DNA of 63,951 nucleotides, counting the filler, from Licmophora abbreviata (lineage: Eukaryota), in assembly GCA_900291995.1 (NCBI GenBank). It is 16 parts of 16 records of this genome, joined end to end, with 100 filler letters (N's around TTAATTAATTAA, not from the genome) between each part and the next. Parts side by side here need not be neighbours in the genome. Positions count along the whole stretch, not along the records: positions 36,697 to 45,054 come from OLMU01003765.1; 15 more parts are not named here. The stretch is one strand, 5' to 3'. Positions within the stretch are counted from its first letter, which is position 1, and each line of letters starts with the position of its first letter. The notes beneath the pieces are model-generated. The model was not told the DNA's origin. It was given only the letters and a program-made list of their open reading frames with translations, and made no database searches. Made by a program: the position numbers and the translations under genes. Shown one piece after another: positions 34,118 through 62,960 of this stretch.

Positions 34118-34190
34118 GCACCGTCGGTCCCGGTCCTGTGGTTTGGCCACGGCCGCCCGCAAGGGACGGCCGCGCCGGCAGTTTCCGCGA

Positions 34191-36131
34191 TCATGCCGCC
34201 GCCTCGGGCGCCTTTTTCTGTCGCGTCACGAAGGCATAGGCACACATCGGCAAGAACAGGGCGGCTTGTGCCAGGAAGAATATGTTTCCCTGATCCGTCA
34301 TTCCAAGGAAGCCTGCAAAGGCTGCCAGACCAATGGTCCAGCGTTCCCACCCCCTCAGGTTCCTGAACACGTGACCATAGCACGCGATTGACACCGTCAG
34401 CTGGATCAGCAGCACCTCCAGCAAAGGGGGTACCACAGCCCATGTCAGGTTCGGAAAGGTCATCAATTCGGGCGAGAAGACGAAGGCGAACGGAATGATG
34501 AAGGTGGTCAGCGCGATCTTCATCGATTCCCCGGCGGTCTTGAGGAAAGACGCATCCGCCAGTTTCGCCGCCGCCAGCACACTCACCGCGATTGGTGGCG
34601 TCAGCGTCGAGAAGACCGCGAAGTAGAACACGAAGAAATGCGCCTGAAGCGGCGGCACGCCGATTTGCTGCATGAACGGCACCAGCGCCAGCGCCACGAT
34701 TAGATAGGCCACCGGGGTCGGCAGACCCATGCCAAGCACCAGCGACACGCACATCGCGCCCAACAGCAGCAGAAGCTGGCTGTCCGGCAGATACTGCACC
34801 AGAACCGCGCCAAGACGGCCCGACAGGTTGGTGGTCAGCATGACCTGCCCCAAAGGTCCGACCGCGATCAACAGCAGCGACAGGATGGCGACCAGATAAA
34901 AGCCTTCTTCCATCGCACTATAGAGCCGCGTCCATTTCGGGCGGTATTTGCCCTGGAACATCGCAAGCCCGAGCGCGATGATGATGCCCCACATCCCCGC
35001 GATCGCCGGTGAGCGATAGCCAAGCAGCAGCCACAGCACCACACCGAACGAGATGACGAAGGTCGGCAACAGCCGGATGATCATCTCGCGGTCGACCTTC
35101 TCGGTCAGCTTCGGCAATTCGTGGCGACGCGCATAGATGACGATCGCGATGCCCACACCCACCAGATAAAGCAGGCCGGGGATCATCGCCGAAAGCGCCA
35201 CGTCGATATAGGGCAGGTTCAGGAAACTGGCGATGATGAAGGCGGCAAGCCCCAGGATCGGCGGCATGATCTGCCCCGCGGTCGAGGCGGTCGCCTCGAT
35301 TGCGCCCGCCATCGGCCCGCTATACCCATAGCGTTTCATCATCGGGATGGTGAGACGCCCCGTCAGCACCACGTTGGACACCGCCTGTCCCATGATCGAA
35401 CTCACGATGCCCGACCCGATCAGAGCGGGGCCAGCCGCGCCACCCGGAAGCCTGCGGCCCGTCGACTTGCCGACTTCCAGCACCATGTCCAACATGCCGA
35501 CGCCAAGCAGGATCGCCGCATAGATGATCAGGAAATAGATCGCGTCGGCAGCAACCTGCGCCAGATAATAGAAGCCCTGATTTGTTCCGAGGCCGATATA
35601 GTTCATCACGAATTCGGGCGAATATTGCGGGGTCACGAAAAGCGGGTTTTCGATTTTGTATCCAAGAAAGAAATACGCGATCGCAATAGATACCACCGTG
35701 GTCAGCAACCACCCCCAGTGGATAAAGGTCAGCATCAGGATCGAGATGGTCATCATCCAGCCGAAGATCATGTCGGTCTCGTTGAAGAACGGCTGTGAAA
35801 CCTCGAGCTGTTGGGCGTTCAGCCGCACATAGCCCATCGCGATCGTGGCCATCACAAGCCCTACGACCGCAAAAACCATGCGCGGCCAGAAGAAGGGGCG
35901 GATCGGCCGGATTATCTCGGTTTCCGGATCGGCGATGCCGAGCTTCTCGTCACACAGGTTACGCACCGCCAGAAGGCCGGTCATCATCACGATACCAAGG
36001 ATGAAATTGGAGTAATGCTCCGAAGAGTTGCTCGTGAATCCGAACGCGGCGAAGCCGATATAAATGGTCATCAACAAGCCGATCAGCAAGAACGGTATGT
36101 CGGTCGCTTTACGCAGAGTCTTCCAGGCCAT
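34191..36131 (-). CDS. TRAP transporter fused 4TM/12TM permease (TAXI type)
   Basis: AGAIEATASTAGQIMPP, LGMGLPT, AHFFVFYFA and TPPIA motifs. Confidence 0.92.
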   Translation of the reverse strand: MAWKTLRKATDIPFLLIGLLMTIYIGFAAFGFTSNSSEHYSNFILGIVMMTGLLAVRNLCDEKLGIADPETEIIRPIRPFFWPRMVFAVVGLVMATIAMGYVRLNAQQLEVSQPFFNETDMIFGWMMTISILMLTFIHWGWLLTTVVSIAIAYFFLGYKIENPLFVTPQYSPEFVMNYIGLGTNQGFYYLAQVAADAIYFLIIYAAILLGVGMLDMVLEVGKSTGRRLPGGAAGPALIGSGIVSSIMGQAVSNVVLTGRLTIPMMKRYGYSGPMAGAIEATASTAGQIMPPILGLAAFIIASFLNLPYIDVALSAMIPGLLYLVGVGIAIVIYARRHELPKLTEKVDREMIIRLLPTFVISFGVVLWLLLGYRSPAIAGMWGIIIALGLAMFQGKYRPKWTRLYSAMEEGFYLVAILSLLLIAVGPLGQVMLTTNLSGRLGAVLVQYLPDSQLLLLLGAMCVSLVLGMGLPTPVAYLIVALALVPFMQQIGVPPLQAHFFVFYFAVFSTLTPPIAVSVLAAAKLADASFLKTAGESMKIALTTFIIPFAFVFSPELMTFPNLTWAVVPPLLEVLLIQLTVSIACYGHVFRNLRGWERWTIGLAAFAGFLGMTDQGNIFFLAQAALFLPMCAYAFVTRQKKAPEAAA

Positions 36132-36226
36132 GGAACGTATCCCAGTCGGTTTGCTTGAAGTTTGAAGCTGAACAGCGAGCTGCCGCTACGGACGAAACCG
36201 CGGCCCTGCCTGCCTCGCTTTGAAAG

Positions 36227-36256
36227 GGCCGACCGATCCCGCAGGGTCGGTCGGCC
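36227..36256 (-). terminator. Stem-loop between the TAXI SBP and permease genes
   Basis: GGCCGACCGA...TCGGTCGGCC forms a 10-bp perfect stem. Confidence 0.55.
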
Positions 36257-36293
36257 AATGTCGTCACGACATATCGCCTTCAGGTGCAGGCGA

Positions 36294-37436
36294 TCACTTG
36301 ACCTCAGGATAGGTCATCGGGTCGCATTTCTCGGTCAGCTCCCACCATCCAAGCTCTTTGAACGCGCGGATCGCACCGGGATGGGCGTTTTCCTCGGACA
36401 GACCGCAGGTCATCAGCTCGGGGTTCCAGATGTTCCAGAGCGCGTGAAGCTCTTTCATCTTGGGTCCGATCTCGGCCACGGCCTTGACCAGCTTATAGGC
36501 GGTCTCTTCGCTGAAATCCTCATGCGCGGCCTTGTAGGCGCGGTTGAAGCCGATACCCAGAGGCTCGTCCTGATGCGGCAGCGTGTTGGGCGGCAGNNNN
36601 NNNNNNNNNNNNNNNNNNNNNNNNNNNNNNNNNNNNNNNNTTAATTAATTAANNNNNNNNNNNNNNNNNNNNNNNNNNNNNNNNNNNNNNNNNNNNAGCT
36701 TGTCGACGATTTCCTTGGTTACGCCGAGGTAGCAGATTTTCTTGCCTGTCGCCTCAAGCTGGCGCACCGGGCCGGGGATCAGGAAGTTGGTCAGCGTCGG
36801 CTCTGCGCCAATCGGGGTCACGGCGGCATCCGTCGCGCCGTCGATCAGCTGCTGTGTCAGCTGTCCGGGCGTCATGTGGCGGATATCCGTGTTCTCCGGC
36901 GTCACGCCATAGCCGTATTCCAGGAACAGCCGGCTGAACACGCCCCAGTCCGACTGGCCGCGCAGACCAAGCGAAATCCGCTTGCCCTTCAGATCGGCCA
37001 TCGTCTTGAGCGAGCAGTCGAAGGTCGCAAGGAATTTGCCCTGGCCCCACCATGCCTCACCGTAAAGCAGCTTCCACGGAATCTGCACCGGCTCGGGCAG
37101 GAATTCCGCCATGCTGCCCTGGCCACCCTGATAGGCGACCTGGATCAGCGTATCCTCGGTCGCGAAAATCGAGGTTTTTCGTTTCGATTCGTTCAACGCC
37201 ATTTCGCGGATGTTGTAATTGTAGCCCGGCGTCTCCTGCGGCAGGATCATGACATCGGATTGTGCCTGAATCAGCTGGTTCATCAGGATCGTGTCGCCTG
37301 CCATCGGCCCGCATCCAAAGGGGCAAAGCAGAACGGGGATGGCCTCTACGGCCTGTGCGGCACGGTCGCCGCCAGCAATCGCGGTCAGGCTGGTGACGGC
37401 GGCCAGCGCCAGAGTTTTCATTTTGAGTCGTGGCAT
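36294..37436 (-). CDS. TAXI-family TRAP solute receptor (interrupted by gap 36597-36696)
   Basis: Signal peptide, ETPG..YN, DLKGKRISLG, LIDG.TDA, LPPNTLP, EETAYKLVK and HPGAIRAFKELG; GGGAGG RBS. Confidence 0.85.
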
Positions 37437-37589
37437 ATGTTCCTCCCATAGGACTGTGCAATTTGGCGTTTCGGACCTGTTGGCCGCTGACGCGTTCTCA
37501 TTATGCAAGACAATCTATATCACTAGCTGGACGAATTGTCATCAACGCGATAGGCTCGAGGGAAGAATTTTACCCAAAGGAGGCGGTCC

Positions 37590-38357
37590 ATGGGGCTGGT
37601 TCAGGACAATCCGATCGAGGTTGCGGGGCGGTGCTATCTTGTGGCCGGTGCCTCAGGGGGATTGGCAAGGCCGATCGTTGCAGCACTTCTGAAGCGCGGC
37701 GCGCGGCTCGTTTTGATGGATACGGATGCAGCGGGCCTGGACGATGTGATCGCGGCCCATGGTTCGGAAAACGCGCTCTCCTTCACAGGCGACATCACCG
37801 ACAAGGCCGCTCTGGATGCAGCCGTCGATTTGGGGCAGACCCGCTTTGGCCGTCTCGACGGTGGGCTGAACGCCGCTGGATTGTTGCCCATCGCGGCCTC
37901 CGACACGATGGACGTCGAACTGTTTCGCCGCTGCATAGATGTGAACCTGACCGGCGCGTTCCTCTTCAGTCAGGCTTTGGCGCCCGCTTTGCGTGCCGCA
38001 GGCGGCGGCCGCATCCTGCATATCGCGTCGGTCTCAAGCACGGTCTCAAATCCCGCCTATGCCGCCTATGCAGGCTCCAAGGGCGGTCTGGCGCAGGTCG
38101 TGCGCGTGCTGGGCCGCGAATGGGGGCCCGATGCGATCACGGTCAATGCCATCGGTCCGGCGCTCACCGAAACGGATCTGACCCGGGACTATCTTTCGAA
38201 TCCCGCCTTCCGCGCCAAGGCAATCAGTGACATTCCCATGGGACGCCTCGGCCTGCCCGAGGATCTGATCGGGCCGGCTTTGCTGCTCTTGGGTCCCGGT
38301 GGCGCCTTCATCACCGGGCAAACCATCTACGTTGACGGAGGACGCACCCTTGTCTGA
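37590..38357 (+). CDS. Short-chain dehydrogenase/reductase
   Basis: GASGGLA, NAAG, YAGSK and FITGQTIYVDGG motifs; AAAGGAGG RBS. Confidence 0.9.
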   Translation: MGLVQDNPIEVAGRCYLVAGASGGLARPIVAALLKRGARLVLMDTDAAGLDDVIAAHGSENALSFTGDITDKAALDAAVDLGQTRFGRLDGGLNAAGLLPIAASDTMDVELFRRCIDVNLTGAFLFSQALAPALRAAGGGRILHIASVSSTVSNPAYAAYAGSKGGLAQVVRVLGREWGPDAITVNAIGPALTETDLTRDYLSNPAFRAKAISDIPMGRLGLPEDLIGPALLLLGPGGAFITGQTIYVDGGRTLV

Positions 38358-39663
38358 CAGCGCATCCCATCGTGGCCTCGCCGCTCAGCGCCGCGCGGCG
38401 ACCCACGCCGCCGACCCGGAGGCTCTAGCCGAGCTGATCTACACCGCCGCCTCGACAGGTGAGGACCGCATCGGCGCATGGGAGGTGCTGGACCGCGACG
38501 CTATCGTGGAACAGGCGGGCCGCCTGATGACGCGCCCGAACTGGCAGGATCTGCCGCTGGCCGGTGTCGCCGTCGGGGTGAAGGACATTTTCGACACGTC
38601 CGATTTCGTGACGGCCTATGGCTCGCCGATCTATGCCGGGAACCGTCCGGCGGCGGATGCGGCCGCAGTTGCGGCTCTTCGCGGGGCAGGGGCGATCCTG
38701 CCGGGCAAGACGGTAACCACTGAATTCGCCTATTGGAAAGCCGGCAAGACGCGCAATCCTCGCAACCCGGATCACAGCCCCGGTGGCTCGTCGGCGGGAT
38801 CCGCCGCCGCTGTTTCTGCGGGCATGGTCCCCTTGGCCATCGGCTCGCAAACAGCCGCCTCGACGATCCGGCCCGCCGCCTATTGCGGCATCGTGGGCTT
38901 CAAGCCCAGCCTGCACCGGATCAGCCTTGCAGGCGTCAAGGGGCTGGCGGGCTCGATGGACACCGCCGGGTGCTTCGCGCGCGATGTGGCGGATGTGGCG
39001 AGCCTTGCCAGCGTGTTGGCAGGCCGCCCGGATTGGCGCGACCCGGCTGGCCCCGGCGCACCTGCGCCATCCCTGCATCTCGCCGTCACGCCCGAATGGG
39101 ACACGGCCTCGCCCTGGATGCGCGACGCGCTCGACAGCATCGTCGCATCGCTGGCCGCGCTCGGCGCGCCCGTCACACGGGCGCCCGCGCCAGCCGCCTT
39201 CACCCCGCTGGCGCAGGTGCAGACCCGCCTGATGGCCGCCGAAGCCGCCCGCGACCTTGCGACCGAAGCACGCTTTCACCGCCATAGCCTGAGCGAGCCT
39301 CTGCAGGAGTTGATCTCCACCGGGCAGGCGATGCCCCCTGACCAGCAAGAGGCCGATTACACCGCGCGCGACACCGCCTTGGCGCAGCTTGACGCGCTCT
39401 TTGCCGGGGCGGACCTCCTCTTGGCGCCAAGCGCCCTGGACGAAGCCCCCAGGTTCGAGACCGGCACCGGCAGTCCCGATCTCAGCCGTGCATGGACCCT
39501 CCTCGGTCTGCCCTCGATCACGCTGCCCGCAGGGCTTGGCCCCAACGGCCTGCCAATGGGCCTTCAGCTTGCCGCGCGGCCGGCCCGGGATCGGGCTCTT
39601 CTGCAAGCGGCCCGCTGGATCGAAGCACACCTGGCACCGGACAGGCGCCATGCAGTCGCTTGA
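38350..39663 (+). CDS. Amidase-signature-family amidase
   Basis: VKDIFD, GKTVTTEFA, PGGSSAGSAA and GSQTAASTIRPAAYCG; likely TTG start at 38350. Confidence 0.9.
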   Translation: MSDSASHRGLAAQRRAATHAADPEALAELIYTAASTGEDRIGAWEVLDRDAIVEQAGRLMTRPNWQDLPLAGVAVGVKDIFDTSDFVTAYGSPIYAGNRPAADAAAVAALRGAGAILPGKTVTTEFAYWKAGKTRNPRNPDHSPGGSSAGSAAAVSAGMVPLAIGSQTAASTIRPAAYCGIVGFKPSLHRISLAGVKGLAGSMDTAGCFARDVADVASLASVLAGRPDWRDPAGPGAPAPSLHLAVTPEWDTASPWMRDALDSIVASLAALGAPVTRAPAPAAFTPLAQVQTRLMAAEAARDLATEARFHRHSLSEPLQELISTGQAMPPDQQEADYTARDTALAQLDALFAGADLLLAPSALDEAPRFETGTGSPDLSRAWTLLGLPSITLPAGLGPNGLPMGLQLAARPARDRALLQAARWIEAHLAPDRRHAVA

Positions 39664-40423
39664 CGCTCTGATCCAGTGGCTGCAGCCGCTGCCCGCGCCC
39701 GTGTCGCTGCTGGTGATTTTTCTGATCACCATCGTCGGTGGCGTGCTGCGCGGCTTTACCGGCTTCGGCGCCGCAATGGTCATCATTCCGGTGGTGGCCC
39801 TTGTGACCTTGCCGCGTGATGCGGTGGTCTTTCACGCTCTGATCGAGATACCCACGGCACTGCAGCTTCTGCCTGATGGGCTGCGCCATGCGCGCCGCTC
39901 CACGGTGCTGCCGATGATGCTGGGCCTGACCCTCGCCGTGCCCGTGGGCATGTTGCTTCTGGTCAGCCTGCCGCCAGATGTCATGCGCGTGGCGATGTCC
40001 ATTGCGGTGCTCGGGCTTGTGACATTCATGTGGGCCGGTGTGCGTCTGCCGCCGCCGCGAGGCAACTGGGCCGGGATACTCGGCGGCACCGCCGGCGGCA
40101 TCCTTCAGGGCAGCGCAGGGGTCGGCGGCCCGCCCATTGCCGCCGCTCTAATGGCGCGCCGTGACGATGCGGGCGAAACACGCGGCAATGTGCTGGTGAT
40201 GATGGCGCTCATCATCCTCGTGTCGATCCCCGCGCAATACGCGTTCGATCTTTTCAATCGTGAAGTGGTGATCCTCGGCGTGATGATGGCCCCGGCCTAT
40301 ATGCTGTCCACGGTCTTCGGCGCCTGGCTCTTTCGCAGGACAGGCGGGCGCAATTACCGCGCCATCGCCCTTGGTATCCTTGCCATGACCGCGATCGGAA
40401 CGCTTGTGGCCTCGATTTTGTAA
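39650..40423 (+). CDS. TauE/SafE (sulfite-exporter-family) membrane protein
   Basis: RGFTGFGAAM and G.AGVGGPP repeated helix motifs, about eight TM segments; start MQSLD at 39650. Confidence 0.85.
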   Translation: MQSLDALIQWLQPLPAPVSLLVIFLITIVGGVLRGFTGFGAAMVIIPVVALVTLPRDAVVFHALIEIPTALQLLPDGLRHARRSTVLPMMLGLTLAVPVGMLLLVSLPPDVMRVAMSIAVLGLVTFMWAGVRLPPPRGNWAGILGGTAGGILQGSAGVGGPPIAAALMARRDDAGETRGNVLVMMALIILVSIPAQYAFDLFNREVVILGVMMAPAYMLSTVFGAWLFRRTGGRNYRAIALGILAMTAIGTLVASIL

Positions 40424-40432
40424 GCGCGTCGC

Positions 40433-40906
40433 TCAGTCGATCACGAACAAGGGCTGCCCGTATTCGACCATCTGGCCATCCGTCGCAAGGATCGCCTTGA
40501 CCGTTCCTGCGCGTGTTGACTCGATCGTGGTGAAAAGCTTCATCACTTCGATGATGCACAGCGGCGTTCCCACCTCGACTTGCGCGCCCACGGTGACGAA
40601 TTCCGCCTCTTCGGGCGAGGGGCGGCTGTAATACGTGCCCACCATCGGGGCGACCACCTGATTGCCGCTCACCGGCGCTGCGGCGCTGTCCGCCGGGGCC
40701 GAACTCTCCGGAGCCGGGCTTGCAGCAGCAGGTGCAGGAGCCGCCGCCGGGGCAGGGGCCGCCGAAACCTGCGCCGGTGCCGGATCCGAGGCGCCCTTGC
40801 GGCGGATCAGAATCTTCGCGCCCTCAAGCTCAAGCGAAACCTCGTCGCAATTGCTGCTGTCGACGATCTTCACGATTTCGGCAACGTCACTGTAGCTGAG
40901 CGTCAT
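40433..40906 (-). CDS. Stand-alone biotin carboxyl carrier protein (AccB-like)
   Basis: Ala/Pro linker, APMVGTYY, IEVMKL biotinylation motif and VEYGQPLF. Confidence 0.93.
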   Translation of the reverse strand: MTLSYSDVAEIVKIVDSSNCDEVSLELEGAKILIRRKGASDPAPAQVSAAPAPAAAPAPAAASPAPESSAPADSAAAPVSGNQVVAPMVGTYYSRPSPEEAEFVTVGAQVEVGTPLCIIEVMKLFTTIESTRAGTVKAILATDGQMVEYGQPLFVID

Positions 40907-40915
40907 GGGGGGTCC

Positions 40916-41800
40916 TCATTCTTCCTTGTCAGGGGTGTCTTGATCCGAGTGGAACGTCTTGGCAAAACTTTGCGCCGCTTCCTTCATGCGCGGCACAAAG
41001 CCCAGCATCTGGTTCAGCGTCATGCGCGCTTCAGGGGCGGACACGGCGATACATCCAAGGCAATTGCCCAATTGGTCGACCACCGGCACGGCCACGCAGA
41101 CCACGCCATGCATGAATTCCTGGTTGTCGGTGCCGATCCCGTCCATCCGCACCCGGTGAATGGCCTCGGTCAGCTTGCCGGGATCGGTGATCGTCGCATC
41201 CGTATAAGCGGTCAATGGCCGGGCCTCGACGATGGCGCGCAAATCGCGTTCCGCCTGAAAACTCAGCATCAGCTTGCCGATGGCGGTGCAATGCGCGGGC
41301 ACCCGGCTGCCTGCCGCAAAGCGCAGGCCAAGCGGCCATTTCGACTCGACCCGGTCCAGATAGATCACCTCCGATCCGGACAAGATGCCGTAATTGCAGG
41401 TCTCGCCGGTTTCCGCCGCGATCTCCTGCAGGATCGAGTGGCGCAGCGATCTGGGCGCGGATGTCACCAGCGCCCGTTGCGAGAGCATGATGAGCCTCGG
41501 CCCTTCGGTAAAGCCGTTATCGGCGGCGTCGCGCTCGAGAAATTCCATTTCGACCAGCATGTTCACCACCCTGTGCGTGGTCGGCTTGGTCAGACCGGTG
41601 ATACGAATCATTTCGGAAATTGAAATCGGCCTCGTGCTGCGGGCGATCAGCTCCAGAATCATGAAGGCTTTTCCGGTCACGCCCAGTTCGGCCAGCTGGT
41701 CGCGACGCGTCGACTCGATTGCATCCTCGATCAGCGGGTCATCCAGATCGTCGTTGTTGAAAAGGTTGACCACAGGCGCGCGCTTGGACTCGTTCTTCAT
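40916..41800 (-). CDS. IclR-family transcriptional regulator
   Basis: GLTKPTTHR HTH, TGETCN, GSRVPAHCTAIGK and EFMHGVVCVAVPV motifs. Confidence 0.92.
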   Translation of the reverse strand: MKNESKRAPVVNLFNNDDLDDPLIEDAIESTRRDQLAELGVTGKAFMILELIARSTRPISISEMIRITGLTKPTTHRVVNMLVEMEFLERDAADNGFTEGPRLIMLSQRALVTSAPRSLRHSILQEIAAETGETCNYGILSGSEVIYLDRVESKWPLGLRFAAGSRVPAHCTAIGKLMLSFQAERDLRAIVEARPLTAYTDATITDPGKLTEAIHRVRMDGIGTDNQEFMHGVVCVAVPVVDQLGNCLGCIAVSAPEARMTLNQMLGFVPRMKEAAQSFAKTFHSDQDTPDKEE

Positions 41801-41973
41801 GTTTCACCCTTGTTCTGTTCGATGGAGGGCCGGCGCACGACCCGTCCATCAATCAATACTATGACCTCTTGCAGAACGGAAATCAATCATCCTATACTAA
41901 ATTCGAAACGATACGTGCTTTATTTCGAGACGAGACATCACGCAGACACAGGCAGCCGGTGGACAGATTCCCA

Positions 41974-43389
41974 ATGAACCAAAGCCCCAATCCAACGCCC
42001 CAAGGCGCACGCGGCTCCGACACGGGACTGTCGCGTGTGCTGATCGCAAATCGGGGCGAAATCGCCCTGCGGGCTATTCGCGTCTGCCGCGACCGGGGGC
42101 TTTCGTCCGTTGCCGTCTATTCCGAGGCTGATTCGGACGCGCCGCATGTCTGGGCGGCCGATCACAGCGTCTGCATCGGCCCCGCCGCGGCCACCAAAAG
42201 CTACCTGTCGCCCGGCGCTTTGGTGCATGTCGCCAAGATGACGGGCTGCGATGCGGTCTATCCCGGCTACGGGTTTCTGTCGGAAAACGCCGATTTTGCG
42301 GATCCCTGCGCGCAGAACGGCCTCAAATTCGTCGGTCCTTCGGCGGATGCCATCCGGACCATGGGTGACAAGGCCCGTGCCCGCGAGGTGGCCTCCGGTC
42401 TTGGCGTGCCGGTGGTGCCCGGCTCCGAAGGCGCCTTCACCGATCCCGCCGCCGCCGAGTCCGTGGCGGCCGATGTGGGCTTTCCCATGCTGCTCAAGGC
42501 GAAAGCCGGTGGTGGCGGTCGGGGTATGCGGATCGTGCGCGAACCGGATGCCTTCCGCGCCCAGTTTCTTCAGGCCAGCCGCGAGGCCGAGGCCGCTTTC
42601 GGCGATGGCGGCGTCTATATCGAACGGTTCTTCGACGCGGTGCGCCATATCGAAATTCAGGTGATGGGCGATGGGCGCGGCGGTGCCGTGGCCTTTGATG
42701 AACGCGATTGCAGCGTGCAGCGCCGCCACCAGAAACTGATCGAGGAATCCCCGTCCCCCGCCGTCGGCCCCGATCTGCGCGCCCGCCTGAAAGAGGCGGC
42801 GCTGAAACTGACCCAAGGGATCGCCTATGAAGGCGCCGGCACCATCGAATTCATCCTCGATGTCGCGTCGGGCGAGTTCTTCTTCATCGAAATGAACACC
42901 CGCATCCAGGTGGAACATACCGTTACCGAAATGCGCATCGGCCATGATCTCATCGCGATGCAGCTTGATATCGCGGGTGGCGCGCCGCTCGATCCGGCGC
43001 TGGCCGATCATGTGGGCCGCGGCCATGCGATCGAGTTTCGCATCAACGCCGAGAACTGGAAAAACGGCTTCATGCCGTCGCCGGGCCGCCTGAACGAATG
43101 GCTGGTTCCGCAGGGTGAGGGCATCCGCCTTGATACCGCCGTCTATCGTGGCCAGCGAATTTCACCCTTCTACGATTCGATGATCGCCAAGCTGATCGTC
43201 TGGGGCGAAACCCGTGACGAGGCGCTCGCGCGGTCGCGCGCCGTGCTGGATGGCTGCCGCGTCGACGGGGTCGAGACCACGATCGGCTTTCATCGACGGT
43301 TGATCGACCACGAGGATTTTCTGCAAGACCGTGTGCATACAAGATGGATCGAGAACGACATGTCACTCGAGTCTCTGGGAGGAGCGTGA
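41974..43389 (+). CDS. Biotin carboxylase
   Basis: LIANRGEIA, PGYGFLSEN, GGGGRGMR, ERDCSVQRRHQK, EMNTRIQVEH and YDSMIAK motifs. Confidence 0.95.
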   Translation: MNQSPNPTPQGARGSDTGLSRVLIANRGEIALRAIRVCRDRGLSSVAVYSEADSDAPHVWAADHSVCIGPAAATKSYLSPGALVHVAKMTGCDAVYPGYGFLSENADFADPCAQNGLKFVGPSADAIRTMGDKARAREVASGLGVPVVPGSEGAFTDPAAAESVAADVGFPMLLKAKAGGGGRGMRIVREPDAFRAQFLQASREAEAAFGDGGVYIERFFDAVRHIEIQVMGDGRGGAVAFDERDCSVQRRHQKLIEESPSPAVGPDLRARLKEAALKLTQGIAYEGAGTIEFILDVASGEFFFIEMNTRIQVEHTVTEMRIGHDLIAMQLDIAGGAPLDPALADHVGRGHAIEFRINAENWKNGFMPSPGRLNEWLVPQGEGIRLDTAVYRGQRISPFYDSMIAKLIVWGETRDEALARSRAVLDGCRVDGVETTIGFHRRLIDHEDFLQDRVHTRWIENDMSLESLGGA

Positions 43390-44837
43390 TGAGCCGCGAC
43401 ATCAAATTCATCGACGTCACCTTGCGTGACGCGCATCAATGCCTCTGGGCCACCCGCATGACCACCGGCATGATGAAGGACATCGCGCCGTTTCTGGATC
43501 GTGCCGGGTTCGAGGCGATCGATCTGGTCGGCGGTGCCGTGTTCGATGTCTGCGTCCGCTTCCTGCGCGAAGACCCTTGGGAGCGTATGAGGATCCTCAA
43601 CACATGGATCACCGAGACGCCTCTCATCATCCACACGCGCGGCCAAAGCCTTTTCACTTTCGAATTCTTCCCCGACGACATCGTCGAACTGGCCGCCGAG
43701 CGTTTTGCCGCCAACGGGATGCGCTATCACACGCCCTATGATCCCTTGAACGACATCCGCAACTTGCGGATTCCCGTGCAGGCCGCGCGCAAGCTGGGCA
43801 TCCATACGGTGCCGGGTCTCGTCTATACCTACAGCCCCGTTCACACGGATGAGTATTACCGCAAGAAGGCCCTCGAACTGGTCGAGATCGGTGTGGACGG
43901 CATCTTCATCAAGGATCCAAGCGGGCTTCTGACGCCGGAACGCGTCGCAACCCTCGTGCCCGCGATCAAATCCGCCATCGGCGATCTGCCGTTGCAGCTG
44001 CATTCGCACTGCCTGTCGGGCCTGTCGCCCTATGTCGCGCTGCAGGCGGTCGAACACGGCATCGACGTGCTGCACACCGCCACCTCTACTCTGGCGCATG
44101 GCGCCTCGCACCCGCCCACCGAACGGGTGGTGGAAAACCTCCGCCGCCGCGGTCATTCGGCCGCGCTCGATCTCGACGCGATCCGCGAAGTGGCCGAGCG
44201 TCTGGACTACATCGCCAAGGTCGAAGGCAAACCCACAGGCCAGCCGCTCGACTATGACGAGTTCCATTTCCATCATCAGGTCGCGGGCGGCATGATCTCG
44301 AACCTGCGGGTGCAGCTTGAAACCGTGGGTCTCGCCGACCGGATCACCGAAATCCTCGAAGAGGCAGGCCGCGTGCGCGCCGATCTGGGCTATCCCATCG
44401 TGGTCAGCCCCTTCGCGCAATATATCGTGACCCAAGCCGTTCTGAACGTGACCTCGATGGACAAGGGCGGTCAGCGCTATGACAGCGTGCCCGACGAAAT
44501 CCGTCTCTATGCGCGCGGCGGCTATGGCGAGATCGCGGGCGAGATCGACGCCAACCTCTATGACAAGCTGACCGGCGGCAAGGAGATCATCACGCAACGT
44601 GCGGGTGCCCTGATCGAACCGGCCATCGCCCGTCTGCGCAAATCGCGTGGCCCCTTCGCCTCGGATGACGATCTGCTGCTCGCGGCCTTCTATGACGACA
44701 CGCAATACAAGGCCCTGAAGCAGGCGGGCCCGATCGACACCGAGTATCGGCTGGCCGGCACGCCGCTTTTGACCCTGCTGAAAGAAGTCGCCAAGCGCGA
44801 TGACATCAAGAGCTTCCATCTCAGCGTCAAACCCTGA
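43389..44837 (+). CDS. Pyruvate-carboxylase-B / oxaloacetate-decarboxylase-alpha / 5S-like carboxyltransferase without a biotinyl domain
   Basis: DVTLRDAHQ, GGAVFD, EDPWER, IKD, HSH and HQV.GGM.SNL motifs; no C-terminal MK domain; TGATG-coupled to the biotin carboxylase. Confidence 0.9.
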   Translation: MSRDIKFIDVTLRDAHQCLWATRMTTGMMKDIAPFLDRAGFEAIDLVGGAVFDVCVRFLREDPWERMRILNTWITETPLIIHTRGQSLFTFEFFPDDIVELAAERFAANGMRYHTPYDPLNDIRNLRIPVQAARKLGIHTVPGLVYTYSPVHTDEYYRKKALELVEIGVDGIFIKDPSGLLTPERVATLVPAIKSAIGDLPLQLHSHCLSGLSPYVALQAVEHGIDVLHTATSTLAHGASHPPTERVVENLRRRGHSAALDLDAIREVAERLDYIAKVEGKPTGQPLDYDEFHFHHQVAGGMISNLRVQLETVGLADRITEILEEAGRVRADLGYPIVVSPFAQYIVTQAVLNVTSMDKGGQRYDSVPDEIRLYARGGYGEIAGEIDANLYDKLTGGKEIITQRAGALIEPAIARLRKSRGPFASDDDLLLAAFYDDTQYKALKQAGPIDTEYRLAGTPLLTLLKEVAKRDDIKSFHLSVKP

Positions 44838-44881
44838 CCGCGCTTGCTCATGCAGGCGCGCCAAACACCACAGGACAGACC

Positions 44882-45054
44882 ATGACCACACCCTGCATCA
44901 TCACGACCGCGATCACCGGCGCCATCCCGCGTACCTCGGAGTGTCCCGGCCTTCCGGTCGTGCCCTCGCAGCAGATCGAATCCACTCACGAAGCCTATGA
45001 GGCCGGATCGGCGCTCGTGCATATCCATGTGCGCAATGACGACGAAAGCCCCAG
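44882..45054 (+). CDS. Beta-keto acid cleavage enzyme (BKACE/Kce/DUF849), N-terminal part
   Basis: IITTAITGA...PGLPV..QQI...EAYEAGSALVHIHVR, with the HxH Zn ligands. Confidence 0.85.
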
Positions 45055-45154
45055 NNNNNNNNNNNNNNNNNNNNNNNNNNNNNNNNNNNNNNNNNNNNTT
45101 AATTAATTAANNNNNNNNNNNNNNNNNNNNNNNNNNNNNNNNNNNNNNNNNNNN

Positions 45155-46330
45155 AATATAGCCGTCCTCGTCGATCTTCCCCAAATCGCCGGTGATGAAA
45201 AACCCGTCCCCGCGCAGCTCGGCTGCGGTCTTCTCCGGCATCTGCCAATAGCCCTTGAACACGTTCGGCCCGCGCACTTCGATCTGGCCGATCTCGCCAT
45301 CGGGCAGCGTCTCGCCGGTCTCGGGATCGGTAATCTTCAACTCCACGCCGGGCAAGGCAAAGCCCACCGTGCCTGCGCGCCGCTCTCCGTCATAGGGGTT
45401 CGAGGTGTTCATGTTGGTTTCCGTCATCCCGTAGCGTTCAAGGATGCGGTGGCCGGTGCGCTCTTCGAACTGCACATGGGTTTCCGCCAGCAACGGCGCC
45501 GACCCCGAGATGAACAGCCGCATATGCTGCACCAGATCGCCGGTGAACCGCTCATCATCCAAAAGCCGCGTATAAAAGGTCGGGACGCCCATCATCGACG
45601 TGGCTTTCGGCAGCCAAGCGATCACCTCATCGGCATCGAATTTCGGCAGGAAAATCATCTCGCCGCCAACCGACAGAATGATGTTGGTCGCCACGAAAAG
45701 GCCGTGGGTGTGGAAGATCGGCAGCGCGTGCAGCAACACGTCTTCGCCGGTAAAGCGCCAGTGATCCACCAGCACCTCGGTATTGGACAGCAGGTTCTCA
45801 TGGGTCAGCATCGCCCCCTTCGAGCGCCCGGTCGTGCCTGAGGTGTACAGAAATGCCGCCAGATCATCCTTGCCGCGCGCCACCGTGGCGAATGTCTCGG
45901 GCTGGTCTGCGGCCTGCGCCATCAGGCTGCCGCTGCCATCTGCGTTCAGTGTCGCCACCTGCGCCGACAGACCTTTGGCCATGGGTGCGATCGCACCCGT
46001 CTTTGCCCCGTCGCATACGATCAACCGCGCACCGCTGTTCTCGATGAAATAGGACAGCTCATCCACCGTATAGGCCGTGTTGAGCGGCAAGAAGATCAGC
46101 CCCGCCTGCACGCAAGCGGCATAAAGCGCCAGTGCCTCGGGGGATTTGGCGACCTGTGCCGCGACCCGGTCTCCCGGCTGCAGACCCATCGCGGTGACCG
46201 CGTTGGCGATCCGGGCGGCGGTGCCCAGAAACGCGGCATAGCTGATCGTGCCGCCACTCGGCAGATGCAGGAAGGTGGCCGTATTGCCGGCATGTTTTCC
46301 GAACAGGTTGTCATAAAGCGTGTTTGCCAT
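45155..46330 (-). CDS. matB: Malonyl-CoA synthetase (3' end lost in gap)
   Basis: YTSGTTGRSKGAML, HALPIFHTHGLFVA, MGVPTFYTRL and ERYGMTETNMNTSNPY motifs. Confidence 0.93.
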
Positions 46331-46333
46331 GGC

Positions 46334-47590
46334 TCACTTTTCCTTGGCTGGTTCGAGATGTGCTGAATTGGCCAGCGATTTGACTTCGGATGTGGCGACC
46401 ACGGTGTTGGTGGCCGCGAATTGTTCGTGGTTCTGGGCGACCTTTGCCAGATCGTACAGGTAATTGACCATCGTGCCGCCCGATCTCGCCCGCCCATTTG
46501 CCGAGGTATCTGCCTCCGCGTGCACCGCATGGATGATGGCGCCATTGCCCAGATGGAAGCGTGCGACCGGATCGACCGGTGCGCCGGTGTCATGCTTGGC
46601 GTGCAACAGGTAATGCGCCGCGAGCGCGCGCATCTGCTCAGGCGCAGCCTCGGTCCATGGGATGCCTTGCGCGTCCAGCCATGCACAGAGCCCCGGAATC
46701 GGCGATAGCGTCACGAAGGTTTTCAACCCCGGCAGCTCCGCCGCCAAATCCGACGCCACCTGCTTGATGAGCGAATTGCCGAAGGAAATACTGGCCAACC
46801 CCGCCTGACAGTTCGAGATCGAATAGAACACCGCCGTGTCGGCCTCTTCCTCGGGGAGCGTGGCGCGCTCGGGCGCCAGAAGCGCCTGCACCGATCCCGG
46901 AATACCCCGGGTCAGCGCGACCTCGACGAAAATCAGCGGCTCGTCGGGCATTGCAGGGTGGAAAAAGGCGAAACAGCGCCGGTCCTCCGGCTCCAGCCTG
47001 CGGCGCAGATCGTCCCAGCTGTCGATGGCGTGCACCGCCTCGTATTGGATGATCTTCTCAAGGATATGCGCAGGGCTTTCCCAGTTGATCGGCCGCAGCA
47101 CCAGAAATCCGCGATTGAACCACGACGCGAACAGGTGCCTGAAATCCAGATCCAGCGCTTCCAGCTCCGGCGTGCCGCGCCCCAGCCGCAACAGATCGGC
47201 GCGCATCCCCACAAGCGCCCTCGTGGCGCCGGGCACGCTGTTCAGCCTGCGGATCAACTCCTGCCGCCGCGGCTCGGCGGCGGCCATGTAGCTGCGATAA
47301 CTGGACTTGGAGGGCTCTTCCTCATAGGCATCCAGCGCGTTTCGCACCGCTTCGGGATCGATATTCATCGCCCCCGCCAGATGCTCGAAAAACCCCAGCT
47401 TCTCCTCGTCCTTCATCATCGCGAAGCCCGTCAGGATCTCGGCCGCCATGCTGGCCCCCGACGTCTCGCCGGTGCTGCCGACCAACTCATCCGCCAGTTC
47501 CGCGATCGGACGTGTCCCGTGGCGGCGCTGCGCAAAGGGGCGGTAACGCCGCTCGAAGACGGTAGAAAGAAGGTCGGCCAGCAAGGTCAT
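46334..47590 (-). CDS. matA: Malonyl-CoA decarboxylase
   Basis: SWFNRGFL, YEAVH, EPLIFVEVALT, FYSISNCQ.GL, FGNSLIK, TLSPIPG and DPVARFHLGNGA; start MTLLAD at 47590. Confidence 0.93.
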   Translation of the reverse strand: MTLLADLLSTVFERRYRPFAQRRHGTRPIAELADELVGSTGETSGASMAAEILTGFAMMKDEEKLGFFEHLAGAMNIDPEAVRNALDAYEEEPSKSSYRSYMAAAEPRRQELIRRLNSVPGATRALVGMRADLLRLGRGTPELEALDLDFRHLFASWFNRGFLVLRPINWESPAHILEKIIQYEAVHAIDSWDDLRRRLEPEDRRCFAFFHPAMPDEPLIFVEVALTRGIPGSVQALLAPERATLPEEEADTAVFYSISNCQAGLASISFGNSLIKQVASDLAAELPGLKTFVTLSPIPGLCAWLDAQGIPWTEAAPEQMRALAAHYLLHAKHDTGAPVDPVARFHLGNGAIIHAVHAEADTSANGRARSGGTMVNYLYDLAKVAQNHEQFAATNTVVATSEVKSLANSAHLEPAKEK

Positions 47591-49030
47591 TGTCCCGGAC
47601 CCATTACCGCATCCGGCAACCACGTGGCCAGCCCCGGAAAGAAGCACAGCAGGATGATCGCGACCACCATGCAGGCCACATAAGGCAGCGACCCCTTGAG
47701 GATCGTCTTGAGCGAGATATCCGGCGCGATGCCGTTGATGACATAAAGGTTCAACCCCACCGGCGGCGAGATCAGGCCGATCTCCATGTTGATCGTCAGG
47801 ATCACCGCGAACCAGATCGGATCGAACCCGGCCGTGGTGATGATCGGCAACAGGATCGGCGCGGCCATCAGGATCACCGCGACCGGCGGCAGGAAAAAGC
47901 CCGCGATCAGCAGGAAGACGTTGATCGCCCCCATCAGCACCCACCGGTTCACATCCAGCGTGCCGATCCATTCGGCGATCGACTGGGTGATGAAGAGCGA
48001 CGACAGCATGTAGCTGAACACGCCCGCAGCGGCGATGATGAACAGGATCATCACCGATTCCTTGGTGCTGTCGCGCAGCACCACCCACAATTGGCGCGGA
48101 TCCCACAGCTTGTAGATGATCATCGCGATGAGCAGGCACATCAGCGCGCCCACGGCGGCGGTTTCCGACGGCGTCGCGATGCCTCCATACATGGNNNNNN
48201 NNNNNNNNNNNNNNNNNNNNNNNNNNNNNNNNNNNNNNTTAATTAATTAANNNNNNNNNNNNNNNNNNNNNNNNNNNNNNNNNNNNNNNNNNNNACGGCG
48301 TCGCGATGCCTCCATACATGGCGTAAAGAACACCGATGATGATCGCCACGAAGGGCAGAACACGCGGCAGGATCTCGAATTTCTGTTTCCAGCTATAGCT
48401 GCTGGCCATCAGCACCTGTGCCGAACCCGATTTCCATGTGGAATAGAGCGACCACGCCATGAACAGGCTCACCAGCAACAGCCCCGGAATGACCCCGGCC
48501 AGAAACAGCCGCCCGACCGACGTTTCCGTGGCGATGCCATAGACGATCATCGTGACTGATGGCGGGATCAGGATGCCAAGCGTGCCGCCCGCCGCGATCG
48601 ATCCCGCCGCCACTTCGTCGGGATAGCCGCGCTTGCGCATCTCGGGGATGCCCATCTTTCCGATGGCAGCACAGGTGGCGGGGCTCGACCCCGACATCGC
48701 CGAGAACAGCGCGCAGGCGCCCAGGTTCGACACCACAAGCCCGCCGGGCACGCGCGTTAGCCACCGCTCCAGCGCCTCGTAAAGATCGGCCCCCGCCCTC
48801 GTCGAGGCGATCGATGCCCCCATGATGATGAACATCGGGATCGACAGAAGGGCGAAGTTGTTAAGCTTGCCGAACAGGATTTCAGGCATCAGCTCCAAGG
48901 ATCGCAGACCGTCGAAGATGATCAGGAAGCCCGCCGACACGATCAGCAGCCCGATGGCCACCGACACGCCGGAAAACAGCACCATGACGGTGGCGATGGC
49001 GACAAGCGCCCCAAGCAGAAGAGGATCCAT
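47587..49030 (-). CDS. dctM: TRAP large permease (false gap inside)
   Basis: SGSSPAT, GTLGILIPPS, GIATPSETA and ISPPVGLNL motifs. Confidence 0.92.
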
Positions 49031-49578
49031 CAGACGTTCTCCAGTCCAAAGGGTTTGTCGACCTTGATGATGACCGCCACCAGATCGGCCACCAGCTGCA
49101 GCATCAGCAGCGCGAAACCGACCGGGATAGACAGATAGGGTATCCACAGCCGCACGCCCCAGACCGTGTCCGAGCGCCAGCCGCGATCCCACGCGAAATG
49201 CCAGTATTCAAATCCGTAGAACAGCATGACCCCGACGATCAGGATCGAGACCGACAGCGTGATGATGCACAGCACGTATCTCGCCCTCGGCGGCAGCGCG
49301 AGCGGGAAGAGGTCCACATTCACATGGCCGCGCAATCGCTGCACATAAGGCAGACCGATCAGCGTGGCCGCCACCATCAGATAGATCACCGCCTCGGTCT
49401 GCCACACGGTCGATCCGTTTAGCACGAAGCGGATGAAGATCATCTGACAGGTGATCGCCACCGCCGCCACGATCATCCCGGCCGAACACCAGCCTGCCAG
49501 GGTGGAAATCGCCGCGACACCACGCAGAAAAGGATTGTTCCCGGTCTGCGCTGCGGCAGCCGAACTTTGACCGGCCAT
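49030..49578 (-). CDS. dctQ: TRAP small permease
   Basis: Four TM segments, RFVLN..TVWQTE and GHVNVDL motifs. Confidence 0.9.
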   Translation of the reverse strand: MAGQSSAAAAQTGNNPFLRGVAAISTLAGWCSAGMIVAAVAITCQMIFIRFVLNGSTVWQTEAVIYLMVAATLIGLPYVQRLRGHVNVDLFPLALPPRARYVLCIITLSVSILIVGVMLFYGFEYWHFAWDRGWRSDTVWGVRLWIPYLSIPVGFALLMLQLVADLVAVIIKVDKPFGLENV

Positions 49579-49665
49579 GCTGGACTCCCTTGAAATTCTG
49601 GTCTTTTTACAGATGTCCGCCGGGCGGACAGTTGGGGCGACCCGAACGGGCCGCCCCGCCTTGGA

Positions 49666-50652
49666 TCACTCGACCGACAGGGCCATGTCCAGAAGCTCCT
49701 GACCGTCAGCCACTTCTTCGACGAAGGACTTGTAGGACGTCTCCTGCGCCAGCTTGCGCCATGCGTCGAAATCCTCGGGCGTCATGTTGCGGATCTCGAC
49801 ACCAGCTTTCTGGAACGCCTCGACCGACGCCGCGTCTTCCTTCTTGGCCTCTTCGAGATAATAAGCTTCCGCCTTTTCCGCCGCCGCCATCAGCGCGCTC
49901 TGTTGCGCCTCTGTCAGCCCCTCGAAGGTGCTCTTGTTCATCAAGAGCGGCTGATACATGAACCACAGCGCCACATCGCCTGCGGGCGTATAGCATGCGG
50001 CCTGCTCATAGATGCGGAAGCTGACGAAGGACGAGGACGAGGTGTTGACCGCTTCCAGAACGCCGCTCTGCATGGCGTTGTAGATTTCCGACGAGGCCAT
50101 CGACGCGATCGAGGCGCCGGCACCGGCCAGCATCTGCTCGAACGCCTTGCCGGCGGCGCGCATCTGCAGGCCCGCGACATCCTCGGGCGTGGTGATGCAC
50201 TTGTCCTTGCCGACGAAACCGCCCGCCAGATAGCCGTGCACCAGCACCATGACGTCATCTTCCGCCATCTTCTCTTCCAGCTTCTCCATAAAGGGGCTGT
50301 CGGACAGGCGCGCGGCGTGGTCGTGGTTCTTCACAAGGCCGGGCATCAGCGTAAGGTTGAAGGCCGGTTGCTGGCCGCCCGCATAGCTCAGCGGCAGAAC
50401 CGTCATATCCAGCTGGCCACGGCTCAGCGGCTGATACTGTTCGCGGGCCTTGAACAGCGACCCCGAGCTGAAGATCTTGATATCCAGATCGACACCGGCG
50501 GCGGCCACTTCATCGGCCACGATCTGCGCCACTTGGTGACGGATATCCTGATTCGACCACTGATGCGACAGGCGCAGTTCGGTTGCGTTGGCGAAAGCCG
50601 CCGACGACATCAGCGCCGCCGCCGCAACGGCGGTTTTAAGCATTTTTTTCAT
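49666..50652 (-). CDS. dctP: TRAP periplasmic binding protein (probably malonate)
   Basis: Signal peptide, PEDVAGLQMR and EIYNAMQSG; first gene of the mat operon. Confidence 0.9.
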   Translation of the reverse strand: MKKMLKTAVAAAALMSSAAFANATELRLSHQWSNQDIRHQVAQIVADEVAAAGVDLDIKIFSSGSLFKAREQYQPLSRGQLDMTVLPLSYAGGQQPAFNLTLMPGLVKNHDHAARLSDSPFMEKLEEKMAEDDVMVLVHGYLAGGFVGKDKCITTPEDVAGLQMRAAGKAFEQMLAGAGASIASMASSEIYNAMQSGVLEAVNTSSSSFVSFRIYEQAACYTPAGDVALWFMYQPLLMNKSTFEGLTEAQQSALMAAAEKAEAYYLEEAKKEDAASVEAFQKAGVEIRNMTPEDFDAWRKLAQETSYKSFVEEVADGQELLDMALSVE

Positions 50653-50735
50653 GGTATTCCTCCCAAAACATATCCCCGGCGCGACCGGGGGTGTCGGCGC
50701 AGATTACGTGTGCTGTGTTTTTCAAGTCAACAATT

Positions 50736-50745
50736 TTGTATACAA
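50736..50745. promoter_or_regulatory. GntR/MatR-type operator
   Basis: Perfect palindrome TTGTATACAA between the divergent dctP and gntR genes; matches the TTGTATAC-type MatR box. Confidence 0.75.
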
Positions 50746-50792
50746 GCTGGATCATATTGCATCGCAGGCATCAGGTGATACACTTCCTTTCC

Positions 50793-62804: not shown

Positions 62805-62960
62805 CGTTTCGCTGCGTGTCGGGCCGGGGCNNNNNNNNNNNNNNNNNNNNNNNNNNNNNNNNNNNNNNNNNNNNTTAATTAATTAANNNNNNNNNNNNNN
62901 NNNNNNNNNNNNNNNNNNNNNNNNNNNNNNCGGCACGCAGCGGGCTGCGGGCCGGGCAGG

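Follow-up and report, generated by a model that had tools for sequence, protein, structure and literature searches.

The window analysed here is a stretch of 63,951 nucleotides (filler included) from the Licmophora abbreviata assembly GCA_900291995.1, and the system in question is a gene cluster within its contig 36697-45054 (from OLMU01003765.1). [quoted passage not shown] The window is composed of short contigs joined by 15 identical N44-TTAATTAATTAA-N44 spacers, which run from one at 3838-3937 to one at 62831-62930; since these spacers are artificial, the "gaps" and gene truncations found at them are assembly artefacts. Over its full length, contig 36697-45054 is 95.9% identical to a stretch of the genome of Roseovarius litoreus DSM 28249, the nearest relative genome (99% complete), which we used as the reference for whole orthologues. 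At least four consecutive contigs of the window (33626-51165) are colinear with a single R. litoreus contig at ~96% identity, so that the spacer at 45055-45154 stands for 1057 bp in that genome, and these hold what the BKACE gene lacks in the window as well as the 3' end of matB. What an earlier note on this DNA had called a gap at 45055 is one of these contig spacers, not an internal sequencing gap. The IclR regulator and the stand-alone BCCP are encoded on the minus strand, and BC, CT and BKACE divergently on the plus strand:

40433..40906, minus strand, stand-alone AccB-type BCCP, 157 aa (Biotin_lipoyl 73.1 bits)
40916..41800, minus strand, IclR-family regulator (IclR_C 136 bits, HTH_IclR 51.2 bits)
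41974..43389, plus strand, dedicated BC, 471 aa from the ATG at 41974 (open reading frame 41869-43389, start likely at 41974)
43389..44837, plus strand, CT, 482 aa, PycB/OadA/5S fold, no biotinyl domain (PYC_OADA 100.9 bits, HMGL-like 48.2 bits)
44882..45054, plus strand, BKACE, first 57 codons, cut at the contig end (BKACE 60.1 bits)
45055..45154, no strand, artificial contig spacer N44-TTAATTAATTAA-N44, non-biological

Family profile scores bear out the five genes (BCCP, IclR, BC, CT and BKACE) at the places where the earlier note had put them. The unit it outlined was too small: a short-chain dehydrogenase/reductase (SDR), a carboxylate transporter and a TauE-type permease are also part of the conserved cluster. 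The BCCP gene follows that of IclR on the same strand after 9 nt; the protein scores 140.2 bits against TIGR00531 (cut-off 115.2), and its translation contains the EVMKL biotinyl-lysine motif. All three BC domains are present in the biotin carboxylase (Biotin_carb_N 141, CPSase_L_D2 220.7 and Biotin_carb_C 135.6 bits). R. litoreus has seven BC paralogues including that of the cluster, the others being 43-50% identical, and also encodes a full-length pyruvate carboxylase (PC) of 1170 aa; the cluster BC is thus a dedicated copy. The BC stop codon overlaps the CT start codon (TGATG at 43387-43391), which sets the CT start at 43389. The relatives of the CT, 480-489 aa long and covering 96-97% of the longer open reading frame, agree with this, and the start given previously, at 43344, is wrong. 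A profile search found no match to the Biotin_lipoyl domain in the CT. The R. litoreus orthologue of the BKACE is whole, with 276 aa, and is identical to the window fragment across its 57 residues. In the intergenic region between IclR and BC, a promoter/terminator scan and a search for inverted repeats found nothing above chance.

Among NCBIfam models, the CT passes only the PRK09282 "domain" model (436.4 bits, cut-off 402). It stays below the cut-offs of the equivalog models for oadA (393.9 vs 756.5 bits), PycB (352 vs 734 and 305 vs 1182) and 5S (316 vs 827). Its best relatives of solved structure are 5KS8_C (286 bits), 2NX9 (277) and 1RQB (254), and ESM Atlas returned generic PycB labels only. 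An exhaustive search of cluster representatives found 5014 CT relatives; 105 of the best 150 (at least 430 aa) were used to build a tree, together with ten members of the CT family and the CT domain of the R. litoreus PC as root (115 tips, after one gappy row was dropped). The CT family forms a clade (support 1.0), nested in a BCCP-less radiation of 64 tips (support 0.999) that are mostly 450-510 aa long. None of the 64 radiation tips has the KDMAG motif, against 31 of the 51 tips outside, and only three reach at least 560 aa, the length at which a BCCP domain is carried, again against 31 of 51. The window CT falls outside the group of PycB, OadA and 5S.

The metal ligands of this fold (Asp14 of RDxxQ, Lys175 of KDxxG, and His205 and His207 of HxH) are found in all 81 sequences of the CT family, and Arg13, Gln17 and Arg84 are likewise invariant. 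In an alignment with 5KS8_C, 2NX9 and 1RQB, the RDAHQC, KDPSG, HQVAGG and VSPFAQ of the CT stand where the solved enzymes have RDxHQS, KDMAx, xQxPGG and VTP[TS]SQ. These four deviations had been reported before, and three of them are family-wide: Cys18 of RDAHQC is present in 78 of the 81 members, KDPSG (Pro177) in 68, with KDASG (Ala177) in the remaining 13, and Ser340, Phe342 and Ala343 of VSPFAQ in all. The Ser codon at 44406-44408 was verified. HQVAGG, on the other hand, is a sublineage trait, with Ala in 12 sequences and Pro in 69, although the His ahead of Q-x-P/A-G-G is specific to the family. Two further changes are absent from the earlier note, both in 81 of 81 sequences: GGAVFD (Val51), where PC-type CTs have GGATFD, and Phe91 in TRGQSLFTFEFF, where PC-type CTs show the Tyr of LRGQNLxGY. 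The CT shares with PycB, OadA and 5S (5KS8_C, 2NX9, 1RQB) the HMGL-like plus PYC_OADA fold, RDxxQ, the KDxxG Lys and HxH, but it has no biotinyl domain, forms a separate clade and lies in a catabolic gene context. Its canonical pocket motifs are all replaced, across the whole family: GGATFD by GGAVFD, LRGQNLxGY by TRGQSLFTF, KDMAG by KDPSG or KDASG, and VTP[TS]SQ by VSPFAQ. Judged from sequence, the CT belongs to a separate family with remodelled active-site loops and is not an ordinary PycB. The earlier note had suspected as much, and the tree and the missed equivalog cut-offs agree.

The BCCP-less radiation as a whole (P0123-P0270) mostly keeps the RDxxQ core, while its pocket loops are extremely varied, and its members are labelled pyruvate carboxylase subunit B or oxaloacetate decarboxylase alpha in the source records. 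It probably comprises many carboxylases with misleading names, each of which may have a ketone substrate of its own. One CT of a sister clade (L096:5805-12067, contig C10 of genome G153) is 53% identical to the window CT and has RDAPQS, yet shares TRGQSIFTFEFF, KDPSG and VSPFAQ. It has no adjacent BC or BCCP, and its neighbours are an ADP-forming acyl-CoA synthetase, a 3-hydroxyisobutyrate-dehydrogenase-like protein, a thiolase-like and DUF35 pair, DctP, an amidase and a Rieske protein; in this group, G153 has three CT paralogues. On a plasmid of Burkholderia sp. THE68 (NZ_AP022320.1; L101:7986-17419), a CT that shares 47% identity with that of the window is followed by accB, accC, DUF485, a cation/acetate symporter, carbonic anhydrase and bioA/bioF/bioD; this is again a self-contained carboxylase in three parts, which brings its own supply of bicarbonate and biotin.

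A scan across genomes representative of their species yielded 80 loci with a CT 64-100% identical to that of the window, in Roseovarius, Tateyamaria, Rhodospirillales, SAR116, Pseudolabrys, Xanthobacteraceae, Bradyrhizobium, Afipia, Arenicellales and other Gammaproteobacteria. In 50 of the 80, a full BKACE of the window type (BKACE1) follows the CT within 400 bp on the same strand; in three more it is cut by the contig end, and in four there are fragments. The other 23 loci have no BKACE downstream of the CT: seven have only a second type (BKACE2), two have a BKACE1-like gene of the aromatic type beside the BCCP, and 14 have neither in the flanks covered. BKACE2 occurs in 12 loci altogether, five of which also have BKACE1. 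Five genomes whose CT loci are BKACE-less have BKACE-family genes elsewhere. BKACE1 relics stand right after the CT in L040 (9512-9628, the last 39 residues), L014 (9510-9857) and L008 (9466-9792; in these two the first ~110-120 residues), which indicates secondary loss or decay in some lineages. The link between CT and BKACE, first noticed in the window, is conserved in other genomes of both Alpha- and Gammaproteobacteria, and is direct in those 50 loci.

Further neighbours were counted by tblastn with chosen queries, within 6 kb of the CT, in the 60 loci that have at least 5 kb on each side. BCCP was found in 58 of these and BC, directly upstream of the CT, in 50, followed by BKACE (47), a transporter (46; an MFS metabolite/H+ symporter, a TAXI-TRAP or an SsuA-like ABC system), an SDR of either of two types (44), IclR (41), TauE (26) and amidase (5). 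Five variant loci in alphaproteobacterial metagenome-assembled genomes (L010, L011, L013, L016 and L017) have BCCP on the minus and CT on the plus strand with no BC between them, and no BKACE within 8 kb; in L010, the two genes adjoin a Rieske oxygenase, a protein of the PEP-mutase/isocitrate-lyase family, a MaoC dehydratase and an alpha/beta hydrolase.

The BKACE orthologues of R. litoreus and Afipia score 451 and 465 bits, respectively, against NF053568 (3-oxoadipate:acetyl-CoA acetyltransferase, cut-off 350), and the 57-aa fragment of the window 84 bits. The best solved relative of BKACE1 is 3NO5 (353.5 bits), and the match of BKACE1 to ObcA/Obc1 is weak (E 5e-8). Across 401 evenly sampled genomes of the same class, BKACE1-like genes were found in 30 and the CT family in two (R. 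litoreus and G153), and thus this BKACE subfamily mostly exists without the CT. Of 12 contexts of CT-less BKACE1 homologues (51-66% identity), we scanned 11, all but L089. Five of the 11 (L086, L091, L093, L094 and L095) are catechol, protocatechuate or hydroquinone clusters, with enol-lactonase-like hydrolases, muconate cycloisomerase, CMD, PcaH, PnpCD and maleylacetate-reductase-like Fe-ADH as neighbours, and these aromatic pathways all end in 3-oxoadipate; two have DAO/DHDPS genes and four are uninformative. BKACE1 is 51-59% identical to the BKACEs of the cat, pca and hydroquinone clusters, where BKACE appears, from gene content, to stand in for PcaIJ/PcaF. These contexts agree with the DUF849 genes that one study places in Methylobacterium pca clusters (PMC8963497).

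Of the 47 CT-downstream copies in a tree of 74 BKACE sequences, 46 group in a single clade (support 0.80). The BKACEs of the CT loci L024 and L029 are nested in the aromatic-linked clade (support 0.999), which points to two independent recruitments of a BKACE of the 3-oxoadipate type to the carboxylase. The BKACEs of aromatic clusters follow ring-cleavage genes, whereas that of the window follows a carboxylase. Intradiol dioxygenase (PF00775) has no match in R. litoreus; this genome therefore lacks that aromatic source of 3-oxoadipate, yet has retained the BKACE behind the CT. The type of the BKACE, together with its relatives in beta-ketoadipate clusters, points to 3-oxoadipate as the beta-keto acid.

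Carboxylases of comparable make-up have been described. According to the literature, XccBCA of Aromatoleum aromaticum EbN1, HpeCBA of Rhodococcus rhodochrous GD02 and AcvCDE of Sphingobium sp. SYK-6 are three-component, biotin-dependent hydroxyphenylethanone carboxylases, each built from a BCCP, a BC and a ~49-kDa carboxyltransferase, that add a carboxyl to the acetyl methyl group of aryl ketones in phosphorylated form and so yield a beta-keto acid. As in the window, BC, BCCP and BCCP-less CT (49 kDa in Hpe) are separate proteins encoded together, and the carboxyltransferase of AcvCDE is described as PycB-like, with 26% identity to PycB. In SYK-6, the product, vanilloyl acetic acid, is reported to be converted by the acetyl-CoA-dependent VceA, which gives an acyl-CoA, and the thioesterase VceB. 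The earlier statement that no characterised pathway has this layout thus does not hold: the Xcc, Hpe and Acv systems are known, and the product of AcvCDE is taken up by an acetyl-CoA-dependent enzyme.

A search of plasmid proteins returned two annotated clusters of aryl-ketone-carboxylase make-up. On pA of Rhodococcus pyridinivorans there are genes for an AMP-binding protein, a PPDK-like kinase, BCCP, BC, CT, an OB-fold protein with thiolase, and a phosphatase, and on plasmid NZ_CP047221.1 of Sphingobium yanoikuyae (L100:2582-9351) for a thioesterase, a BKACE, a Tm-1-like (kinase-like) protein, BCCP, BC, CT and a HAD hydrolase. We take VceA to be a member of the BKACE/DUF849 family as well. 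The CTs of the two plasmids (L099 and L100), picked by gene content as stand-ins for the published HpeB, XccC and AcvE, lie within the radiation (support 1.0) in other subclades, and are 35-39% identical to the window CT. The S. yanoikuyae block lies beside Tn3-family transposase genes and has its CT annotated as "biotin carboxyl carrier protein"; this CT was also matched on a further plasmid of S. yanoikuyae and on one of Sphingomonas bisphenolicum, and the block looks like a mobile aryl-ketone carboxylation module. The Xcc, Hpe and Acv systems have a kinase and a phosphatase for the phosphorylated phenol, whereas homologues of the kinase, phosphatase, thioesterase and thiolase of aryl-ketone clusters were found in none of the 80 loci of the CT family. 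The window cluster, unlike those systems, has carboxylate transporters, an SDR and TauE, and its BKACE is of the 3-oxoadipate and not the aroyl-acetate type, being ~30% identical to that of the Sphingobium plasmid.

Comparison of genes and genomes makes it very likely that the locus encodes a dedicated three-component biotin carboxylase (BC, AccB-like BCCP and BCCP-less CT of PycB fold) of the methyl-ketone-carboxylase kind, which works in a catabolic cluster under the control of IclR, alongside a carboxylate transporter, an SDR and a BKACE. The core of the earlier proposal, that a keto compound other than pyruvate is carboxylated to feed the BKACE, is consistent with this and gains support from the CT tree, the separate PC of R. 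litoreus and the gene linkage; its claim to a layout without precedent does not survive. Gene content, synteny, phylogenetic placement and family scores were observed as described above, and from them we infer in which direction the flux runs and what the substrate and product are. With no kinase, phosphatase, thioesterase or thiolase partner in the 80 loci, a phosphate handle does not seem to be needed, which fits an already anionic substrate and the TRAP, MFS and ABC transporters of carboxylate type. 3-Oxoadipate without its C1 carboxyl is levulinate (4-oxopentanoate), which would be its sole chemically sensible decarboxylated precursor and whose own carboxylate could replace the phosphate handle, again fitting the transporters.

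We tentatively propose that the CT carboxylates the methyl carbon of an aliphatic oxo-acid, levulinate being the best candidate, to give 3-oxoadipate for cleavage by the BKACE. BC would carboxylate the biotin on BCCP with ATP and bicarbonate, and the CT would pass the carboxyl on to the methyl carbon (levulinate + HCO3- + ATP -> 3-oxoadipate). With acetyl-CoA, the BKACE would then convert 3-oxoadipate to succinyl-CoA and acetoacetate at no further cost in ATP. The SDR may supply levulinate from 4-hydroxyvalerate. A CoA transferase encoded elsewhere could activate the acetoacetate, and R. litoreus has a CoA-transferase pair that could do so; BKACE-less loci could hand 3-oxoadipate to enzymes of the PcaIJ/PcaF type. 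By analogy, the general logic would be shared with the aryl-ketone route, in which one ATP serves to carboxylate a methyl ketone and an acetyl-CoA-dependent enzyme splits the product. A methyl-ketone carboxylase coupled to BKACE, with levulinate as the favoured substrate, would be the best overall explanation of the locus, and we give it a probability of roughly 40%.

Several observations weigh against this explanation. No BKACE was found in the flanks examined of 14 of the 80 loci (two of them with short flanks), and the presence of both BKACEs in five loci suggests two different beta-keto acids. BKACE2 is ~30% identical to BKACE1, scores below every NCBIfam cut-off and is cluster-specific, occurring among the 401 genomes only in G153, on the CT contig. 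CT-linked and aromatic-linked BKACE1 differ at conserved positions (e.g., R/G at 89, V/N at 112 and M/H at 149). The SDR is linked to the CT about as tightly as the BKACE, but comes in two types that are 35% identical, and the proposed scheme leaves TauE and the amidase without a role. The best NCBIfam match of the IclR regulator, TIGR02431 (pcaR_pcaU), stays at 156.7 bits, below its cut-off of 284.75. Our literature search, with most subscription journals outside its reach, turned up no publication that deals with this cluster or with the carboxylation of levulinate. The BKACE substrate groups are said to come from Bastard et al. 2014, and the name of NF053568 reportedly rests on an in-vitro screen. 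BKACEs are described as promiscuous in one study (PMC4922564).

This promiscuity, the cluster-specific BKACE2 below the NCBIfam cut-offs and the five loci with both BKACEs make it quite possible that the same architecture acts on another substrate, such as acetoacetate (via 3-oxoglutarate to malonyl-CoA), 5-oxohexanoate (to 3-oxopimelate), a hydroxy-ketone, or a sulfonated or amide ketone, or that a separate beta-hydroxy acid is what the SDR and BKACE2 handle. Sulfonates are hinted at by the TauE/TSUP permease and the SsuA-like binding protein, and the amidase of 5/60 loci would fit this reading too. Acetoacetate would, however, be regenerated along with malonyl-CoA, for a net carboxylation of acetyl-CoA, and while matA and matB, which handle malonyl-CoA, adjoin the cluster in the window and in R. 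litoreus, such adjacency is seen in only two of the 80 loci (L004 and L005). The score of BKACE1 above the 3-oxoadipate equivalog cut-off and its relatives in beta-ketoadipate clusters also favour 3-oxoadipate. An ordinary three-subunit PC, with the BKACE incidental or, along the lines of the Obc oxalate pathway, converting oxaloacetate to oxalyl-CoA and acetoacetate, is improbable. R. litoreus already has its 1170-aa PC, the regulator and transporters are typical of catabolism, the BKACE is of the 3-oxoadipate type, and the CT lies outside the PycB/OadA/5S group, misses all the PycB, OadA and 5S equivalogs widely and has KDMAG, the GY tyrosine and VTP[TS]SQ replaced family-wide; against this stand the residues invariant in 81 of 81 sequences (R13, D14, Q17, R84, K175, H205 and H207), the passed PRK09282 PycB "domain" model, the database names PycB or OadA and the weak ObcA/Obc1 match of BKACE1.

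The invariant Arg84 is the arginine of the LRG motif, which in PC we take to bind the carboxylate of pyruvate. Its retention is compatible with a 2-oxo-acid substrate and is a further point against an oxo-acid of the levulinate kind; together with the RDxxQ residues it would suit a 2-oxoglutarate or 2-oxobutyrate carboxylase making a branched oxaloacetate derivative. We consider such an enzyme highly improbable, since no isocitrate-dehydrogenase-type partner is conserved (a single Iso_dh gene, in L036 only) and the cluster has no enzyme to take up the oxalyl-CoA that a BKACE would form from a 3-substituted oxaloacetate. It would be most surprising if the enzyme were an aryl methyl-ketone carboxylase of the hydroxyphenylethanone type, like HpeCBA or AcvCDE: the three-part make-up is the same, the CT belongs to the same radiation and a BKACE accompanies such a carboxylase on the S. 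yanoikuyae plasmid, but the CT is in a different subclade at 35-39% identity, the two BKACEs are ~30% identical, kinase, phosphatase and thioesterase homologues are missing from all 80 loci, and R. litoreus has no intradiol dioxygenase to use the aromatic product.

The genes at lower positions than the BCCP in the window include the transporter and SDR counted above:

34191..36131, minus strand, TAXI-type TRAP transporter, fused permease (DctM 202.7 bits), on the preceding contig and colinear in R. litoreus
36699..37508, minus strand, TAXI/NMT1_3 solute-binding protein, 5' part, the 3' part lost in the spacer (NMT1_3 24.2 bits)
37590..38357, plus strand, SDR of the SDRr type (adh_short_C2 175.9 bits; below NCBIfam equivalog cut-offs)
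38299..39663, plus strand, amidase-signature enzyme, start codon uncertain (Amidase 230.7 bits; below NCBIfam cut-offs)
39650..40423, plus strand, TauE/SafE (TSUP) permease (TauE 88.3 bits)

The R. litoreus orthologue of the TRAP permease scores 353.1 bits against TIGR02123 (TRAP_fused, cut-off 320.65), and in 12 of the 60 loci a homologue of this fused permease is encoded no more than 6 kb from the CT. The whole R. litoreus orthologue of the solute-binding protein (L003:3366-4517, minus strand) scores 77.1 bits against NMT1_3; an open reading frame on the opposite strand (L003:3330-4460) was rejected, as it has no family match and no likeness to TAXI, and the true gene there is on the minus strand. 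The amidase gene overlaps the start of TauE by 14 nt. On the other side of the cluster, a malonate utilisation block adjoins it both in the window (45155-51165) and in R. litoreus (L003:12778-19286), with a MatB-like acyl-CoA synthetase, the malonyl-CoA decarboxylase MatA, TRAP DctMQP and a GntR regulator. A link to these malonate genes was considered and rejected; given adjacency in two of 80 loci only, they are probably unrelated to the carboxylase cluster.

The design that joins a methyl-ketone carboxylase to an acetyl-CoA-dependent cleavage was already known, and what would be new is the aliphatic oxo-acid substrate predicted here. Levulinate is a bulk product of biomass processing and also the spontaneous decarboxylation product of beta-ketoadipate. 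It is perhaps unlikely, though it would be of consequence, that the enzyme, as one branch of the BCCP-less radiation, is a levulinate (4-oxopentanoate) carboxylase producing 3-oxoadipate, the first of the biotin-dependent carboxylases to act on an aliphatic methyl-ketone acid, and makes up, with the BKACE, a one-ATP CO2-fixing route. Such a route would be of interest to bioconversion and to the design of synthetic CO2 fixation. If the proposal is true, biotin-dependent carboxylases would gain a new substrate class, aliphatic oxo-acids that need no phosphate handle, and the beta-ketoadipate node a non-aromatic entry, leading from levulinate or 4-hydroxyvalerate to succinyl-CoA and acetoacetate. 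This route would be widespread in marine bacteria of the Roseobacter group, SAR116 and Arenicellales and in soil Xanthobacteraceae. The radiation of BCCP-less CTs, with its 64 tips, may matter more still, as it points to many carboxylases that go under the wrong name.

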